Assembly: GCA_029838215.1 (NCBI GenBank)
Contig: JALGVI010000003.1
Coordinates: 53,350 to 85,349 of the forward strand
Direction of reading: 5' to 3'
Length of the DNA: 32,000 bases
Source of the DNA: Candidatus Helarchaeota archaeon
GTDB taxonomy: Archaea > Asgardarchaeota > Lokiarchaeia > Helarchaeales > RDOG01
Below the pieces are notes generated by a model. That model had not been told where the DNA came from. It ran no database searches and saw nothing but the letters and a program-made list of their open reading frames with translations. Within the stretch, counting starts at the first letter, position 1, and every line of letters begins with the position of its first letter. Below, one piece after another: positions 4,365-29,532 of the stretch. Position numbers and translations under genes: made by a program.

Positions 4365-4883
4365 TTAACTCATCATTTTTAATAGATGGCCCGCTTCCTT
4401 GAGTATGATCTGTTCAAGAGCCAGCTTTACGGCATTTGGTGATCCCGGCAGGCAAAAAATTACCTTTCCCTTGTACGTGCCTGCAAGTGCCCTTGAAAGC
4501 ATGCTGGCAGTTCCAATTTCTTTATAGCTCAGGTAACGAAAGAGCTCTCCAAATCCATTAATTTCCTTCTCAAGAAATGGTCGAATGGATTCAATGGTAA
4601 CATCTCGCGGGTTAATTCCTGTTCCTCCTGAAAAAATTAGAATTTCTATCGTATTCATTAAGGGATTTTGAAGTATCTTTTTTATTTTTTCTTTTTCATC
4701 AGGAACAATTTCGAACCATGCAAGTTCTTGCTTATCTTCCTCCAGAATTTGCCGAACTTTTGGAATAGTTTCATCCGTAAGTTGTTTTCCCTGTTTCAAT
4801 TCAAGATAACGAGAGTCACTTACTATGACCAAGCCATATCTAATGGTCTTCTTCACATTCTTTTTATGTTTCAAGTGAACCAT
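4365..4883 (-). CDS. moaB: Molybdenum cofactor biosynthesis protein B (MoaB/MogA family)
   Basis: LVIVSDSR..., FSGGTGINPRDVT, FGELFR, ASMLSRALAG and FCLPGSPNAV are MoaB/MogA blocks. GGAG lies 9 nt upstream of the ATG. Confidence 0.85.
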   Translation of the reverse strand: MVHLKHKKNVKKTIRYGLVIVSDSRYLELKQGKQLTDETIPKVRQILEEDKQELAWFEIVPDEKEKIKKILQNPLMNTIEILIFSGGTGINPRDVTIESIRPFLEKEINGFGELFRYLSYKEIGTASMLSRALAGTYKGKVIFCLPGSPNAVKLALEQIILKEAGHLLKMMS

Positions 4884-4904: not shown

Positions 4905-5357
4905 TTAAAGATCCTGCTTGATTTTTTCAATAACCAAGATGTCCGAAATTTTGGTATTGGGATATTGTCCATTTTCGTCCTTTTCTAAATATTTTGTCAT
5001 GTCCCAAATCGTTAGGAGCGCGATCTCTACTCCCATGAGAGCCTCTAATTCAACTCCTGTCTTGGCAATTGCTTTTACTTCTACAAAAACATTGATGAAT
5101 TTCTCTTCAATTTCGAAAGAAACATCCACGCTCATGATTGGAATTGGATGTGCTAAAAAAATAAATGCAGGAGTCTGCTTAACTGCATTCACGGCAGCCA
5201 ATTCTGCATTCGCCAACACGTCCCCTTTTTTGATTTTATTTTCTTTTATGGTATTTATTGTCTCTTTCTCTAGAAATATTGTGCCTCTTGCCCGAGCCAC
5301 TCTTAAAATGTCTTTTTTTTCCGAAATATCAATCATTGAAGTCCGTGACGTGCGCAT
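4905..5357 (-). CDS. moaC: Cyclic pyranopterin monophosphate synthase MoaC
   Basis: [18 protein letters not shown]...[32 protein letters not shown]....[20 protein letters not shown] matches the MoaC pattern. Confidence 0.9.
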
Positions 5358-5449: not shown

Positions 5450-7243
5450 TTGTCATGGATCTTTTCGGGGGTTCGAACCCAATTGCAGAAAGTGGCGACG
5501 CCGGAAGAAGATAAAGGAAAAGTGATTTTAAAAGTTGCAGCATATGCGAAAATAGTTCTTCATTGCTCTCGTTTTGCAAATGCAAAAATACCGAAGGGAA
5601 AATGGAAAGAAGTCTATGGATTTCTAGTTGGTACCATCAATGGCGATGATGTTATTGTCAATGATGCAGTTCCAATGACTCACGGTGGTTCTACTGAAGT
5701 AGAGTTTGAAGAAAAGCATTACATTGAAGCTGCCGAATTGGATGCACGATTAGCCGAAACCGGAAACGATTTTATAGTCGGTTGGTATCACAGTCATCCC
5801 GGATTAGACGTATTTTTCTCATGGATAGATGTTCGAAACCACATGGGATTTCAAGGACCTAATCCTAAAAGTATTGGACTCGTGTTTGATCATACGAAGC
5901 TATCCAATCCCGGCGACTTGGGGTTCGAAATATATCGAATCAAGGAAATATCTCCTGATTCGGGTTACTATGAAGTGAAGTGGGTAATTCCTGACATGAG
6001 CGAGGAAGTGTTTGCTAAGACTTTATTTAATCTTTCCACGCGCTCAACTGAACAAAAACCTTTAATTGAAGAATATGGTGAAGATGAAGCAATGGAACTT
6101 GTTCCGCTCACACCAGTTCAAACTAAAATAAGTCTGATCGAGCCATCGCAACAAATGGAACTTGCTCCTCAAACAAAAGAAACTGAAAAGGCAATTGAGA
6201 AGCTCGAAAAAGCTCTTGAATTCAGTAGGAATGAAAAATACGAAAAAGCCGTGGATCTAGCCATAAGTGCTGTACGGGATTTTGAAAAATTAAATGATAT
6301 CGGACGTGCTACTGACGCATATGTTCAGATAGGCGGTATTTTTCTAGATTATTATGAAAAAAACAAGCAAATTAGAACCGATATTTTCAGTCATAAGCGT
6401 GCTCCAACCATCTCTGATGCCGATTCAATGATCAATTTTGCCAAACTGCTTAACATCACGTCGAAACAGATTGACTTCAATAAAACTGGACTGGAAAATG
6501 AAATTAAAGGTGTTTCTGGAGAAATGGTCAGGGTTCTCGATGTCAGGATTCAAATTGCAAATATTTTAATTGAAGCATCATCTGTTTGCCAAATTTTATC
6601 CCGAAATGCGAGAGATAATCGCGATTTAGACGGACAGGTAACCTATCTTACAAAAGCGAACAATGCCTTGAGTACAGCACTCATATTTTTAAGGGCAGTT
6701 GAAGACCAAAAGGATCTCGTTGAAAGAATTTTTGATTTGGATAAATTAACGAGTGATATAAGCCAAGCGCAAGCACGCATCCAAGAGTTACACGGATTAA
6801 AACAATTCCTTAATGTTAAACACATCGAAGCGGCTAATTTGTTCGCTGGTGCAGCACGGATTGCTGAAGATGGCTCAAATGCAATCAAGACCGAAAAATT
6901 CCAAAAATTATTGCTCGCCTACTCTAAAACACTTCAAGGCAGAGCATATCACATGGTTGCTGAAAATGAAAAATACCTAAAAAGAAACATCTGTAAATCC
7001 GTCGGCTACTATCGATTGGCTCAAAATTTCTTTGAGGATGCAAGGACGCTATATCCTCCCTGGGCAAAGAGCGATATCGATAAAAACCAGGGCTTCTTTA
7101 ATGAAGTTGAACATCAAATTCAAATAGGATATAAAAAATGCCTTGAAAGTGGAAAAACTCCCATGGAATTTCCACTGTCAAAAGAGATTGAAATTCCTGG
7201 CAAGATTATTTTATCGCAACCGGAACCCTTATTCTTTCCCTAA
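5450..7243 (+). CDS. JAMM/MPN+ metalloprotease (Rpn11/CSN5-like catalytic domain) with a ~400-aa alpha-helical C-terminal extension
   Basis: The JAMM signature is complete: Glu in KEVYGFLVG, then GWYHSHPGLDVFFSWID, which is H-x-H-x7-S-x2-D (nt ~5789-5830). The remainder (from ~nt 6000) is helix-rich with TPR/MIT-like hairpins (AIEKLEKALEFSRNEKYEKAVDLAISAVRDFEKL). The start codon is uncertain because there is no in-frame ATG; candidates are TTG 5450 and GTG 5483/5522. Confidence 0.85.
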   Translation: MSWIFSGVRTQLQKVATPEEDKGKVILKVAAYAKIVLHCSRFANAKIPKGKWKEVYGFLVGTINGDDVIVNDAVPMTHGGSTEVEFEEKHYIEAAELDARLAETGNDFIVGWYHSHPGLDVFFSWIDVRNHMGFQGPNPKSIGLVFDHTKLSNPGDLGFEIYRIKEISPDSGYYEVKWVIPDMSEEVFAKTLFNLSTRSTEQKPLIEEYGEDEAMELVPLTPVQTKISLIEPSQQMELAPQTKETEKAIEKLEKALEFSRNEKYEKAVDLAISAVRDFEKLNDIGRATDAYVQIGGIFLDYYEKNKQIRTDIFSHKRAPTISDADSMINFAKLLNITSKQIDFNKTGLENEIKGVSGEMVRVLDVRIQIANILIEASSVCQILSRNARDNRDLDGQVTYLTKANNALSTALIFLRAVEDQKDLVERIFDLDKLTSDISQAQARIQELHGLKQFLNVKHIEAANLFAGAARIAEDGSNAIKTEKFQKLLLAYSKTLQGRAYHMVAENEKYLKRNICKSVGYYRLAQNFFEDARTLYPPWAKSDIDKNQGFFNEVEHQIQIGYKKCLESGKTPMEFPLSKEIEIPGKIILSQPEPLFFP

Positions 7244-7819
7244 AGGGAAATCGTATAACGTGGTGTAAATTGGACCTGCTCTTGTCAATTGACTTTTTTT
7301 TAATTGAAAGCTATTGACTTGCATGGTTCCGACTTCTTCAGAGTGTTTTTGATGCTCCATTAATTTCGTAATCAGGGCATTGCGATTCCGTCCGCTTCTT
7401 ACCCTTCCAATGGTTAAATGGGCTTGAAAACGCTTTTCTCTTTTTATCCCATACCGTGAAACCGTAGAATCTATTTGTTTCGAGAGATCCATGACTTCAT
7501 TTTTTCCTTTATCAATACCGATCCAAATTACCTTCGGAAATGCGGGTTTTGGAAAAGATCCAACACTTTTAAATTCTATTTCAAACGGTTTGATGGATAT
7601 TTTCTTTACATCTTCAATGATGTCCTGTAATACTCTTTCTTCGACATCCCCTAAAAATTTAAGAGTTATGTGAATGTTTTTGATTTCAACATATTTAACG
7701 TGGGCATTGGTTACTCGAAACTCCTCTTGGATTTTACCAATGTTTGACAATATGTTTTCATCAATAACTTCTATGGCAAAAAAACTTCTCAACAATACCA
7801 ATTTATCACGCTCTTCCAT
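7229..7819 (-). CDS. thpR: RNA 2',3'-cyclic phosphodiesterase / 2'-5' RNA ligase family (2H phosphoesterase, LigT/ThpR)
   Basis: Two H-x-T-x motifs sit at the expected spacing: HITLKFLG and HLTIGR. The length (196 aa) is typical. The 3' end overlaps the convergent JAMM gene by 15 nt. Confidence 0.8.
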   Translation of the reverse strand: MEERDKLVLLRSFFAIEVIDENILSNIGKIQEEFRVTNAHVKYVEIKNIHITLKFLGDVEERVLQDIIEDVKKISIKPFEIEFKSVGSFPKPAFPKVIWIGIDKGKNEVMDLSKQIDSTVSRYGIKREKRFQAHLTIGRVRSGRNRNALITKLMEHQKHSEEVGTMQVNSFQLKKSQLTRAGPIYTTLYDFPLGKE

Positions 7820-8057: not shown

Positions 8058-9173
8058 TTGACTGGAAAAAAACGAAAAATTCGAGAAATTTCAATTAAAC
8101 GCGATGATATTAGTGTAGGATATTCGAAAATATCTGAAAGTCCTGGTGTCGATGAGGTAGTCATAAAACCCATTGGCTTCCCTTTGATTGCTCTAGGGGA
8201 AGAAAGACAATTCATACGAACTGATAATCCAAAACTCTTTAATTCGTATGCTATTGCTCAGTGGAGTGGAACTTACGTCACGGAAGGCACGTATATTTTT
8301 GATCAATTTCTATTTCCTGATTTTGCATTTGAGATAATTTCTGTCAAGCCTGGACCGGGTAAAATTACATCTGGCACTTCTATTGTGCTTCAGTCAAAGG
8401 AAAAGCTCATTCGCAAGGAATTTCCTAATGTTAGCTTTGACGATATCATCGGTAATCATGAAGCAAAGAGAAAATGTCAAATTATAATGAAGTACTTACA
8501 AGATCCTGACCGATTTGGAGAATGGATTCCGAAAAATGTCCTATTTTATGGACACTCCGGAACAGGAAAAACCATGACTGCAAAGGCTCTTGCAAATGCA
8601 ACTAACGTTCCGATATTCCTGATGAGAGCAACGGATTTAATCGGTTTACATGTTGGAGATGGCGCACGAAAGGTACATAACTTATATAGTGAAGCTTCAG
8701 AATCCAGTCCTTGCATCATTTTTATTGACGAATTGGATGCGATAGGTTTAGATCGAAAATACCAATCCATTCGTGGTGACGTGGCTGAAGTCGTGAATGC
8801 CCTTTTATCAGAAATGGATGGAATTACTAACCAATCAGGAATAGTTACAATAGGTGCCACCAATACACCTGCTTTACTTGATGATAGCATTAAAAACCGA
8901 TTTGAATCTTTGATAGAATTCAAGATCTTTGATGACAATGAGCGATATGAGTTCCTTGAAAAGTATTCAAGGCGACTTCCCATGCCATTCAAAATGGACT
9001 TGCATCGCTTGACGAACATGACAAAGAATTTATCCGGACGAGAATTAAAAGAAAAAATTCTTAAGAATGCATTACATCTTGCCATCCTTGAAGATAAGGA
9101 TGAAATCAATGAGGAAATCATCCAGAAGGTCATTATTCACGTGAAAACCTCAAAAAATCCAATGTTCACGTGA
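8058..9173 (+). CDS. AAA+ ATPase with a beta-rich N-domain and a single classical AAA module (COG1223-like)
   Basis: Walker A is GHSGTGKTMTAKA and Walker B is CIIFIDELDA. The second region of homology is ATNTPALLDDSIKNRF. The N-terminal ~125 aa (FEIISVKPGPGKITSGTSIVL) resembles Cdc48/VAT-type N-domains. Only a TTG start (8058) is available in frame. Confidence 0.85.
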   Translation: MTGKKRKIREISIKRDDISVGYSKISESPGVDEVVIKPIGFPLIALGEERQFIRTDNPKLFNSYAIAQWSGTYVTEGTYIFDQFLFPDFAFEIISVKPGPGKITSGTSIVLQSKEKLIRKEFPNVSFDDIIGNHEAKRKCQIIMKYLQDPDRFGEWIPKNVLFYGHSGTGKTMTAKALANATNVPIFLMRATDLIGLHVGDGARKVHNLYSEASESSPCIIFIDELDAIGLDRKYQSIRGDVAEVVNALLSEMDGITNQSGIVTIGATNTPALLDDSIKNRFESLIEFKIFDDNERYEFLEKYSRRLPMPFKMDLHRLTNMTKNLSGRELKEKILKNALHLAILEDKDEINEEIIQKVIIHVKTSKNPMFT

Positions 9174-28854: not shown

Positions 28855-28992
28855 TATAATTTCCTCGACCCAAATATCCATTAAATTTATTCCTGAGTGA
28901 TAATCGTTCGAATGAAGGCATTTGAAAACGAAATCTAATCTATCAGGATTACCATATTAGTATTGGAAACATCGTATTTATTGATGATTGCA

Positions 28993-29532
28993 ATGTCGAA
29001 ACGGCGACAGGAAACAAGAATTAGCAAGTTCATGAGCTATCTGCTTCGTCACGATCCGCAGCATCTGAAGATGGATCAGGAAGGATTCGTGGACACGGAT
29101 GAGTTCCTGAAGTTATTACAAGCGCGTTTTAACTGGTTCACGAAATCGGATTTAATTTCATTAGTTAATGAAAACGAGCGATATGAAATCTCGGATAATC
29201 GAATTAGGGCCGTTTATGGTCATTCAATTGATGTTTCTCCTAAACTCGAGACAGTACAAGTTAATATCTTGTTTCACGGAACATCTCAAGAGTCCGCGGA
29301 AAGAATTCTCAGGGATGGACTGAAGTCAATGAACCGAAATAAAGTCCATCTTTCGAGAACCGTCAGCCGTGCGAAAGTCGTTGGACGACGGAAGGCGCGC
29401 CATCCCGTCATTCTAATAATTGATGCCAAATCAGCTTCTGATGATGGTATTGTATTTGAAAAAGCAACGGATGACGTTCTAGTTTGTAACGAAATTCCTC
29501 CAAAATACATCCGAGTTTTGGACGATGAATGA
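28993..29532 (+). CDS. kptA: RNA 2'-phosphotransferase Tpt1/KptA
   Basis: SKFMSYLLRHDP, GFVDTDEFL, RAVYGHSI, LFHGT and NKVHLS are the Tpt1/KptA R-H-R-R catalytic-tetrad blocks. The start is uncertain among TTG 28963, ATG 28984 and ATG 28993. Confidence 0.9.
   Translation: MSKRRQETRISKFMSYLLRHDPQHLKMDQEGFVDTDEFLKLLQARFNWFTKSDLISLVNENERYEISDNRIRAVYGHSIDVSPKLETVQVNILFHGTSQESAERILRDGLKSMNRNKVHLSRTVSRAKVVGRRKARHPVILIIDAKSASDDGIVFEKATDDVLVCNEIPPKYIRVLDDE

Follow-up and report, generated by a model that had tools for sequence, protein, structure and literature searches.

We analyzed a window of 32,000 nucleotides (the whole stretch of DNA considered here, C112:53350-85349 in contig coordinates) from the genome assembly of a Candidatus Helarchaeota archaeon, which comprises 3.6 Mb in 170 contigs and is 94% complete. 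The gene at the center of this study occupies positions 5450-7243 of the window (C112:58799-60592 on the contig), where it lies between a divergently oriented moaC-moaB pair and genes for a LigT-type 2H phosphoesterase and a PRS2-type AAA ATPase. Its product combines an N-terminal MPN+/JAMM metalloprotease domain and a disordered linker with a C-terminal helical domain that is modeled, with high confidence, as a Bro1 fold. This is the fold of eukaryotic adaptors that act with the endosomal sorting complexes that are required for transport (ESCRT). The coordinates of all features are collected in Table 1, and residue numbers follow the translation from the first start codon.

The fusion is one conserved gene

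The open reading frame (ORF) is uninterrupted, begins with TTG, and encodes 597 amino acids (aa); its coordinates take in the stop codon. An in-frame TTG at position 5483 (residue 12) corresponds to the position at which a 77%-identical homologue, P0003, begins, and residues 1-11 have a predicted local distance difference test score (pLDDT) below 50 in the full-length AlphaFold2 (AF2) model. For both of these reasons we prefer the second TTG, which is probably the true start and would yield a protein of 586 aa.

Full-length homologues of 576-598 aa, with 40-77% identity, occur in more than 25 independent Asgard metagenome assemblies whose source labels read Helarchaeota, Hodarchaeota, or Promethearchaeota. 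Twenty-one homologues align end to end with a mean column identity of 56%. Since the same architecture recurs across so many independent assemblies, an origin by assembly artefact can be dismissed: the ORF is one conserved gene, and two genes have not been run together here by misassembly or a frameshift. The proposal made in the original prediction, that an MPN+ enzyme and a helical scaffold form a true single chain, is borne out by this conservation. When 400 genomes of the phylum were scanned, full-length orthologues (E ~1e-150, ORFs of 577-597 aa) were found in five of the six other genomes of the same order and in none outside it. The fusion is confined to one order of the Lokiarchaeia (a class assignment that follows census labels), and this order is probably the Helarchaeales.

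The N-terminal domain is apparently an active MPN+ isopeptidase

The JAMM zinc motif, H114-S-H116-x7-S124-x2-D127, sits in GWYHSHPGLDVFFSWID, and the catalytic glutamate, E54, is found in KEVYGFLVG. All five residues (E54, H114, H116, S124, and D127) are invariant among the 21 homologues, in agreement with the intact active site that had first been read from this gene. Residues 24-139 match the Pfam JAB family (PF01398) with 54.8 bits against a cut-off of 22.5, and the match to the Prok-JAB profile is marginal (27.9 against a cut-off of 25). A phmmer search of PDB sequences returned CsRpn11 (E = 2.6e-12), Rpn11 (7.8e-10), CSN5 (2.9e-9), BRCC36 (7.6e-7), and AMSH (1.3e-3); solved SAMP-type JAMM proteins were not among the PDB sequence matches. 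In the full-length AF2 model (pLDDT 81.3, predicted template modeling score (pTM) 0.74), VIA-align placed the domain on the CsRpn11:ubiquitin complex (PDB 6fnn) with a Z score of 20.0, a root-mean-square deviation (rmsd) of 2.2 Å over 147 aa, and 31% identity. Rpn11 (Z 19.2), CSN5 (18.7), and BRCC36 (17.8) followed. A word-based search for relatives of the domain brought back only Asgard paralogues.

Because the JAMM residues are invariant and the closest proteins by both sequence and structure are of the Rpn11/CSN5 type, the sequence and model together indicate an apparently active MPN+ isopeptidase of this kind. The earlier impression that the domain is more like eukaryotic Rpn11 and CSN5 than like the minimal prokaryotic JAMM enzymes is likewise upheld, with CsRpn11, Rpn11, and CSN5 as the best PDB matches.

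Three narrower identities were considered and rejected. The SAMP desampylase profile (NCBIfam NF041370, HvJAMM1 type) scored 19 bits against a cut-off of 130, which rules out a desampylase of that type. A strict orthologue of Rpn11, the proteasome-lid subunit, is ruled out by the C-terminal part, which is modeled as a Bro1 fold and not as the lid helical bundle. An enzyme of the AMSH/STAMBP type is ruled out by the lack of any MIT match above cut-off and by the E value of AMSH itself (1.3e-3, compared with 1e-9 to 1e-12 for Rpn11-type chains).

The C-terminal domain is modeled as a Bro1 fold

The remainder of the protein was originally described as helical and devoid of a catalytic motif. This description fits: a disordered linker of ~40 residues is followed by 360 residues that form 13 helices and one beta hairpin. 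When residues 238-597 were folded alone with the 21-sequence alignment, the AF2 model reached a pLDDT of 93.5 and a pTM of 0.90. In a Foldseek search of the PDB with this model, the top 19 matches were all Bro1 domains, from HD-PTP, ALIX, BROX, and yeast Bro1, with E values of 2e-6 to 2e-4 over ~320 columns and TM scores mostly of 0.53-0.64 (two BROX chains scored 0.45-0.46). Generic TPR proteins came next, with TM scores below 0.3. VIA-align gave Z scores of 23.9 and 23.6 for ALIX (2xs1 and 2oew), 23.5 for HD-PTP, 22.7 for BROX, and 21.9 for yeast Bro1, compared with 12.2 for the best non-Bro1 chain, a generic TPR protein. These Bro1 alignments cover 303-311 of the 360 residues at an rmsd of 4.0-4.9 Å and 9-14% identity, and the full-length model repeated the result in VIA-align. 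The match extends over the entire domain, hairpin and C-terminal tail included. On the basis of these models, we assign the Bro1 fold to the C-terminal domain with high confidence.

The original prediction had cast this region as a helical scaffold of unknown function with TPR/MIT-like hairpins, comparable to PCI or MIT modules. Modeling with AlphaFold and comparison with Foldseek support a scaffold domain and replace the PCI and MIT kinds with Bro1; the MIT match reaches ~14-16 bits against a cut-off of 30 and covers a single helix pair. Three findings had been named in advance as telling against the prediction: a common, well-annotated C-terminal domain in an architecture widespread among ordinary archaea or bacteria, an MPN domain from a standard prokaryotic JAMM clade, and an ORF made of two joined genes. 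None of the three was obtained.

The hairpin is the most conserved element of the Bro1-fold domain. Helices 2-3 and the hairpin reach a column identity of 0.68-0.80, and helix 5 too is among the best conserved. The last residues of every fusion protein are P-[LIMV]-F-[YF]-P, a tail with pLDDT values of 78-89. In homologues without an MPN domain (described below), the corresponding PEP-hydrophobic motif is internal and precedes a zinc ribbon, a ~150-aa extension, or a coiled coil. We read the tail as part of the Bro1-type fold, given that the motif is internal in these homologues, is well ordered in the model, and falls within the stretch aligned by structure to Bro1 domains. A docking tail of the HbYX type for a proteasome or AAA ring was considered and rejected on the same grounds. 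Separately, two cysteines in the last two helices, C515 and C564, are invariant in the fusion family, and one of them is nearly invariant in the homologues without an MPN domain as well.

Asgard proteins without an MPN domain share the C-terminal domain

In Pfam and NCBIfam, the C-terminal part matched only MIT, TPR, and SNAP profiles, all below threshold. An ESM Atlas feature search gave nothing at or above 0.9 and only TPR/SNAP-like leads, and a viral structure library yielded only TPR/Sel1/SNAP repeats with TM scores below 0.3. When 1.84 billion representative sequences were searched, eight matches were obtained, seven of which were family members or fragments; the eighth, P0053, is an Asgard homologue that lacks the MPN domain.

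A profile of the C-terminal domain also detected MPN-less proteins in other Asgard families. One group consists of 510-aa proteins present in four of five genomes of one family. Another, of 371-374 aa, ends in a CxxC...CxxC zinc ribbon (L028:1054-2169 and L029:1348-2472). A further group of 417-613 aa, from another family of the same class (L030-L033), has a Bro1-like core with an internal NPEP-hydrophobic motif in all members, and three of its proteins carry an N-terminal helix-hairpin-helix region and a C-terminal coiled coil. The profile search detects this last group in 4 of the 135 genomes of its family, a count from which the true spread may differ. Alignment of the fusion C-terminal domain to the MPN-less set with hhalign gave a probability of 99.6% and an E value of 7.6e-24 over 293 columns, and by this sequence comparison the domain is homologous to the MPN-less Asgard Bro1-like proteins.

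Pfam BRO1 is the top match in all four members of the 510-aa group, at sub-threshold scores (E = 4.9e-4 to 1.8e-3, with a best score of 17.7 bits against a cut-off of 35.1). We regard homology of the domain to eukaryotic Bro1 as likely but not proven.

As an observation in its own right, the genes of the 371-374-aa group sit in a conserved block together with those of an Arf/Ras-like small GTPase, an actin-fold (MreB-like_C) protein, and a basic protein of 195-234 aa.

A ubiquitin-ESCRT cluster lies on the same contig

No gene for a ubiquitin-like protein, E1, or E2 was seen in the 32-kb window when it was first annotated, and this holds. A search of the whole genome revealed a eukaryote-like ubiquitin system on the same contig, in a canonical Asgard ubiquitin-ESCRT cluster at C112 ~18.1-26.8 kb. 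The cluster encodes E1 (ThiF), E2 (UQ_con), ubiquitin, a RING finger protein, a 140-aa protein without assignment, a Vps25-like protein, and Vps4 (MIT+AAA+Vps4_C). After Vps4 come an M28 peptidase and a HepT/MNT pair, and then ESCRT-IIIA (CHMP1-like) and ESCRT-IIIB (Vps20/32/60-like). The ubiquitin, E1, E2, and RING genes are located 39-41 kb upstream of the fusion gene. The fusion gene carries the only Bro1-like domain of the genome, and an ESCRT-IIIB with a conserved C-terminal amphipathic helix is encoded in all five of the other fusion-carrying genomes. A complex prediction for the Bro1-like domain and the C-terminal 70 residues of ESCRT-IIIB returned a score of 0.00, with the fold of the partner being uncertain, and this result weighs neither for nor against binding. 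Within the cluster itself, the HepT/MNT (nucleotidyltransferase) pair, which is toxin-antitoxin-like (L017:10626-11247, C112 ~24.6-25.2 kb), and the M28 peptidase separate Vps4 from the ESCRT-III genes.

The gene product could be an ESCRT-III-tethered deubiquitinase

No known group is more closely related to eukaryotes than the Asgard archaea, which possess ubiquitin, ESCRT-I/II/III, and Vps4. In eukaryotes, Bro1/ALIX is an adaptor that nucleates and regulates ESCRT-III and recruits deubiquitinases. The Bro1 domains of ALIX, HD-PTP, BROX, Bro1, and Rim20 bind the C-terminal helices of CHMP4/Snf7 or CHMP5. Yeast Bro1 recruits Doa4 and animal HD-PTP recruits USP8; AMSH uses its MIT domain to reach ESCRT-III. 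Binding of eukaryotic Bro1 domains to CHMP4/Snf7 and their recruitment of deubiquitinases were reportedly described by Kim in 2005, McCullough in 2008, Luhtala and Odorizzi in 2004, and Ali in 2013.

Because eukaryotic Bro1 domains bind ESCRT-III and recruit deubiquitinases, the most economical reading of the gene product, by analogy, is an ESCRT-III-tethered deubiquitinase in which an Rpn11-type MPN+ protease is joined to a Bro1-fold docking domain. We judge the chance that this is correct to be about even, and we infer ubiquitin as the substrate, ESCRT-III as the docking partner, and the cellular role alike. The N-terminal zinc-dependent MPN+/JAMM isopeptidase would remove ubiquitin, and the Bro1-like domain would dock the enzyme onto ESCRT-III polymers, most likely onto the ESCRT-IIIB (Vps20/32/60-like) protein encoded on the same contig. 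The flexible linker of ~40 residues would let the Rpn11-like domain reach ubiquitinated cargo or ESCRT components. Tethered in this manner, the protease could strip ubiquitin before Vps4-driven membrane scission, so that ubiquitin would be recycled. The work that in eukaryotes is shared between a Bro1 adaptor and a recruited deubiquitinase would here be hard-wired into one polypeptide.

Several observations weigh against this reading. No member of the family (21 examined) matches Pfam BRO1 (PF03097) at E <=10, and PDB sequence profile searches with the C-terminal domain and with the MPN-less set returned no Bro1 chain. Since direct sequence searches fail, the link to Bro1 is made by structure and by one weak transitive match, that of the 510-aa group. 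The four proteins that give this match are 80-86% identical to one another, and the match aligns BRO1 profile positions 189-287 with protein residues 143-251, a register that may be off by ~45 residues (one helical hairpin) from the structural alignment. The domain proper lacks the N-terminal beta strand that eukaryotic Bro1 domains have. We considered whether the helices equivalent to the CHMP4-binding ones, as located by collinearity with ALIX, are the most conserved; their column identity is only 0.51-0.53, and this argument was dropped. The fusion gene lies outside the ESCRT cluster, ~32 kb away, and its conserved neighbors (moaC/moaB, LigT, and the PRS2 ATPase) have no known ESCRT role. 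Finally, a shared fold is no proof of a shared ligand, as the Bro1 domain of rhophilin reportedly does not bind CHMP4.

Some of these points would also fit a deubiquitinase that uses its Bro1-shaped domain as a generic TPR-like scaffold, with a partner other than ESCRT-III and no ESCRT role. Such a partner might be, for example, a class of substrates, a module built around a small GTPase or the cytoskeleton, or ubiquitin chains. Both the location of the gene outside the ESCRT cluster and the lack of a direct BRO1 sequence match are consistent with this explanation, as is the TPR-like core of the domain, for which TPR folds are matched at Z 10-12. Distant MPN-less homologues, moreover, adjoin genes for an Arf-like GTPase and an actin-fold (MreB-like) protein, and not ESCRT genes. 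On the other side, the Bro1 match covers all 360 residues and lies 10 Z units above any TPR protein, and to our knowledge all characterized Bro1 domains except that of rhophilin bind ESCRT-III. We therefore consider a generic scaffold rather unlikely, although it is the alternative that we take most seriously.

Comparison with known systems and significance

If the ESCRT-III-tethered deubiquitinase is accepted, its nearest functional parallels are the pairs formed by yeast Bro1 and Doa4 and by human HD-PTP and USP8 (UBPY). Each links a deubiquitinase to a Bro1-fold domain, an arrangement by which ubiquitin would be taken off at ESCRT-III just before scission. These pairs consist of two proteins, with a non-covalently recruited cysteine protease of the USP family, whereas the fusion is one chain with a JAMM metalloprotease; unlike yeast Bro1 and HD-PTP, it has no V domain or proline-rich region after the Bro1 fold. 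AMSH/STAMBP and AMSH-LP/Sst2 resemble it in joining a JAMM deubiquitinase to a helical module that targets ESCRT-III, a targeting that is proposed for the fusion. In AMSH, however, an N-terminal MIT domain precedes a C-terminal JAMM domain, while the fusion has the reverse order and a Bro1 module.

Among solved structures, the closest relative of the protease is CsRpn11 of Caldiarchaeum subterraneum, an archaeal ubiquitin-processing JAMM protein (PDB 6fjv and 6fnn; PMC6043591). CsRpn11 is small, stands alone, and is encoded in a ubiquitin operon; in contrast, the fusion has a 360-residue Bro1-fold domain and is encoded outside the ubiquitin-ESCRT cluster. The HvJAMM1/SAMP desampylases of Euryarchaeota are likewise archaeal JAMM/MPN+ proteases for a ubiquitin-like modifier, and they share a neighborhood of molybdenum cofactor (Moco) genes, but the fusion has a longer, Rpn11-like MPN core and a large additional domain.

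The C-terminal domain resembles the Bro1 domains of ALIX, HD-PTP, BROX, and yeast Bro1 (PF03097) in its length of ~360 aa, its whole fold, its beta hairpin, and its extended C-terminal tail. It differs in its low identity (9-14%), the lack of a PF03097 match, and the absence of the N-terminal strand from the domain proper. In the full-length model, Bro1 alignments begin within the MPN domain, at residues 152-154, opposite Bro1 residues 5-13. An MPN strand (~152-164) might fill the place of the missing strand in the model; this rests on the end-points of the aligned ranges and could be a chance alignment.

Bro1/ALIX has been reported as not identifiable in Asgard archaea (PMC10936438). Eme et al., 2023 (PMC10307638) list Bro1 among the best-domain hits for Hod-, Njord-, and Thorarchaeia, and the Bro1 entries in the portion of the supplement examined are small proteins labeled PF18097. 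Signature peptides of the fusion family were not found in that portion of the supplement. A full-text literature search likewise found no description of an MPN-Bro1 fusion. Within reach of this search, the fusion is an undescribed, new domain architecture built from known parts.

By combining a modeled Bro1 fold with an active-looking Rpn11-type protease, the archaeal fusion connects ubiquitin removal with ESCRT-III in the manner of a "Rosetta stone", and it brings to light a wider family of Bro1-like proteins that have no MPN domain and belong to other Asgard lineages. Two questions can now be tested directly: whether ESCRT sorting that depends on ubiquitin, and recycles it, is older than eukaryotes, and how the Bro1 domain arose, which bears on the Bro1/ALIX branch of the ESCRT pathway. 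The Asgard domain could be a true homologue and forerunner of eukaryotic Bro1/ALIX, a possibility that we hold tentatively and with the balance somewhat against it. If this were so, the coupling of a deubiquitinase to ESCRT-III by a Bro1 adaptor would be older than eukaryotes. The fusion protein is, in addition, a compact candidate for biochemical and structural study.

Linker motif and MPN+ paralogues

The otherwise disordered linker contains a short motif, P204-x-I-x-E-Y-G-E211, that stands just after the MPN domain and is invariant in the fusion family. It recurs, for example as PLIAE[FY]GE, in MPN paralogues with unrelated C-terminal domains, and a partner common to these proteins may bind it as a peptide ligand.

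The genome contains nine JAB matches, the fusion gene included. The loci of the MPN+ paralogues are L001-L008 (on C71, C134, C161, C82 (two genes), C122, and C160) and C64. The seven paralogues that were read and the fusion gene keep GWYH[ST]HPG; the ninth match, on C64, is the weakest. As all eight of the MPN proteins read, including the fusion, retain H-x-H, there is no obvious MPN- (Rpn8-like) partner among them. The appendages of the paralogues are diverse: the 482-aa protein has an apolipoprotein-like coiled coil, the 330-aa protein a Lys-rich tail, and the 242-aa protein a winged-helix/PCI-like C-terminus, while in the 555-aa protein a TPR N-terminus is followed by MPN and a winged helix. 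The genes for the 555-aa and 330-aa proteins are ~2 kb apart on C82. A database homologue, P0045, has Pfam PCI and JAB matches and could be a single-chain PCI-MPN unit.

Gene neighborhood

Table 1. Features of the fusion gene and of other genes in the window.
Feature	Position in window	Strand	Evidence
Whole gene, predicted MPN+ deubiquitinase fused to Bro1-fold domain	5450..7243	+	ORF list, translation, 21 homologues aligned end to end
MPN+/JAMM metalloprotease domain, residues ~17-200	5498..6049	+	Pfam JAB 54.8 bits; VIA-align Z 20.0 to 6fnn
Catalytic Glu54 codon, in KEVYGF	5609..5611	+	Invariant in 21 sequences
JAMM zinc motif H114-S-H116-x7-S124-x2-D127	5789..5830	+	Read from sequence; all five JAMM residues (with E54) invariant in 21
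Disordered linker, residues ~196-237	6035..6160	+	pLDDT <50 for residues 196-236
Linker motif P204-x-I-x-E-Y-G-E211	6059-6082	+	Invariant in fusion family
Modeled Bro1-fold domain, residues 238-597	6161..7240	+	AF2 model, Foldseek, VIA-align; full-length model agrees
Beta hairpin, residues 350-362	6497..6535	+	DSSP on both models; mean column identity 0.8
C515 codon	6992-6994	+	Invariant
C564 codon	7139-7141	+	Invariant
C-terminal tail P-E-P-L-F-[YF]-P	7220..7240	+	P593, F595, P597 invariant
moaC	4905-5357	-	Pfam MoaC; divergent from fusion gene
moaB	4365-4883	-	Pfam MoCF_biosynth; divergent from fusion gene
LigT-type 2H phosphoesterase	7229-7819	-	Pfam; 3' end overlaps that of fusion gene by 15 nt
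PRS2-type AAA ATPase (PF23900)	8058-9173	+	Pfam
Tpt1/KptA RNA 2'-phosphotransferase	28963-29532		
Glycyl-radical enzyme, 807 aa	29540-31963	-	PFL-like + Gly_radical; reaches window edge

Coordinates and strands confirm the divergent arrangement of the fusion gene and moaC-moaB that was described at the outset. In four orthologous loci, LigT is adjacent to the fusion gene in all four, PRS2 in three, and moaC-moaB-moeA-moeA in three; locus L012 keeps the fusion without the mo genes, and locus L011 lacks PRS2. Across archaea, 48 of the 153 genera that carry PRS2 have a LigT gene within 3 kb of it, compared with 0 at random places. The PRS2-LigT pair also occurs in lineages without the fusion, such as methanogens and Archaeoglobi, and is for this reason taken to be independent of the fusion gene. 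The adjacency is best read as the insertion of the fusion gene beside a pre-existing PRS2-LigT pair.

These data bear on two further explanations, to which we give low weight because the PRS2-LigT association is general and because the Moco context is limited to one order, lost in L012, and without a ThiS/MoaD gene nearby. The first is that the enzyme works with the neighboring PRS2-type ATPase as an unfoldase-coupled deubiquitinase, in the manner of Rpn11 seated above the Rpt ring, and that the helical domain serves as a docking scaffold. The Rpn11-like MPN domain would suit such a role, and the ATPase, two genes away in the window and kept in three of four orthologous loci, belongs to a family named as a homologue of the proteasome regulatory ATPase. 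Yet LigT lies in between on the opposite strand and the two genes are not co-transcribed, PRS2 is missing near the fusion in L011, the PRS2-LigT pair extends to lineages that have no fusion, and the FYP tail, being internal in homologues, is no free docking motif of the HbYX type. We consider this explanation improbable.

Least probable of all is the link first suggested for this gene, in which the protein would process or deconjugate a MoaD/SAMP-type ubiquitin-like modifier in connection with moaC-moaB (moeA) and regulate molybdenum cofactor synthesis, as HvJAMM1 does with SAMP1-MoaE. The divergent moaC-moaB(-moeA-moeA) genes in the window and in three of four orthologous loci agree with it, as does a ThiS-family gene ~7 kb upstream of the fusion in L011; regulation of molybdopterin (MPT) synthase by a JAMM/SAMP system has a precedent (PMC4443979). 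Against the proposal stand the desampylase score and the PDB matches, which include Rpn11, CSN5, and BRCC36 but no SAMP-type JAMM. None of the six ThiS/MoaD genes of the genome lies within 50 kb of the fusion gene, L012 retains the fusion without the mo genes, and MoaC and MoaB do not carry out the sulfur-transfer steps. All of the loci, furthermore, come from one order, so that their shared gene order may reflect inheritance and not selection, and a role in Moco synthesis would leave the Bro1 fold without a function.

Elsewhere the window holds ordinary archaeal core genome, with genes for RNA polymerase A'/A'', thermosome, S12, NusA-KH, TGT, and others. Toward its end, a gene for a Tpt1/KptA RNA 2'-phosphotransferase precedes one for a glycyl-radical enzyme (PFL-like + Gly_radical), which may be metabolically interesting in a lineage for which hydrocarbon degradation has been proposed.

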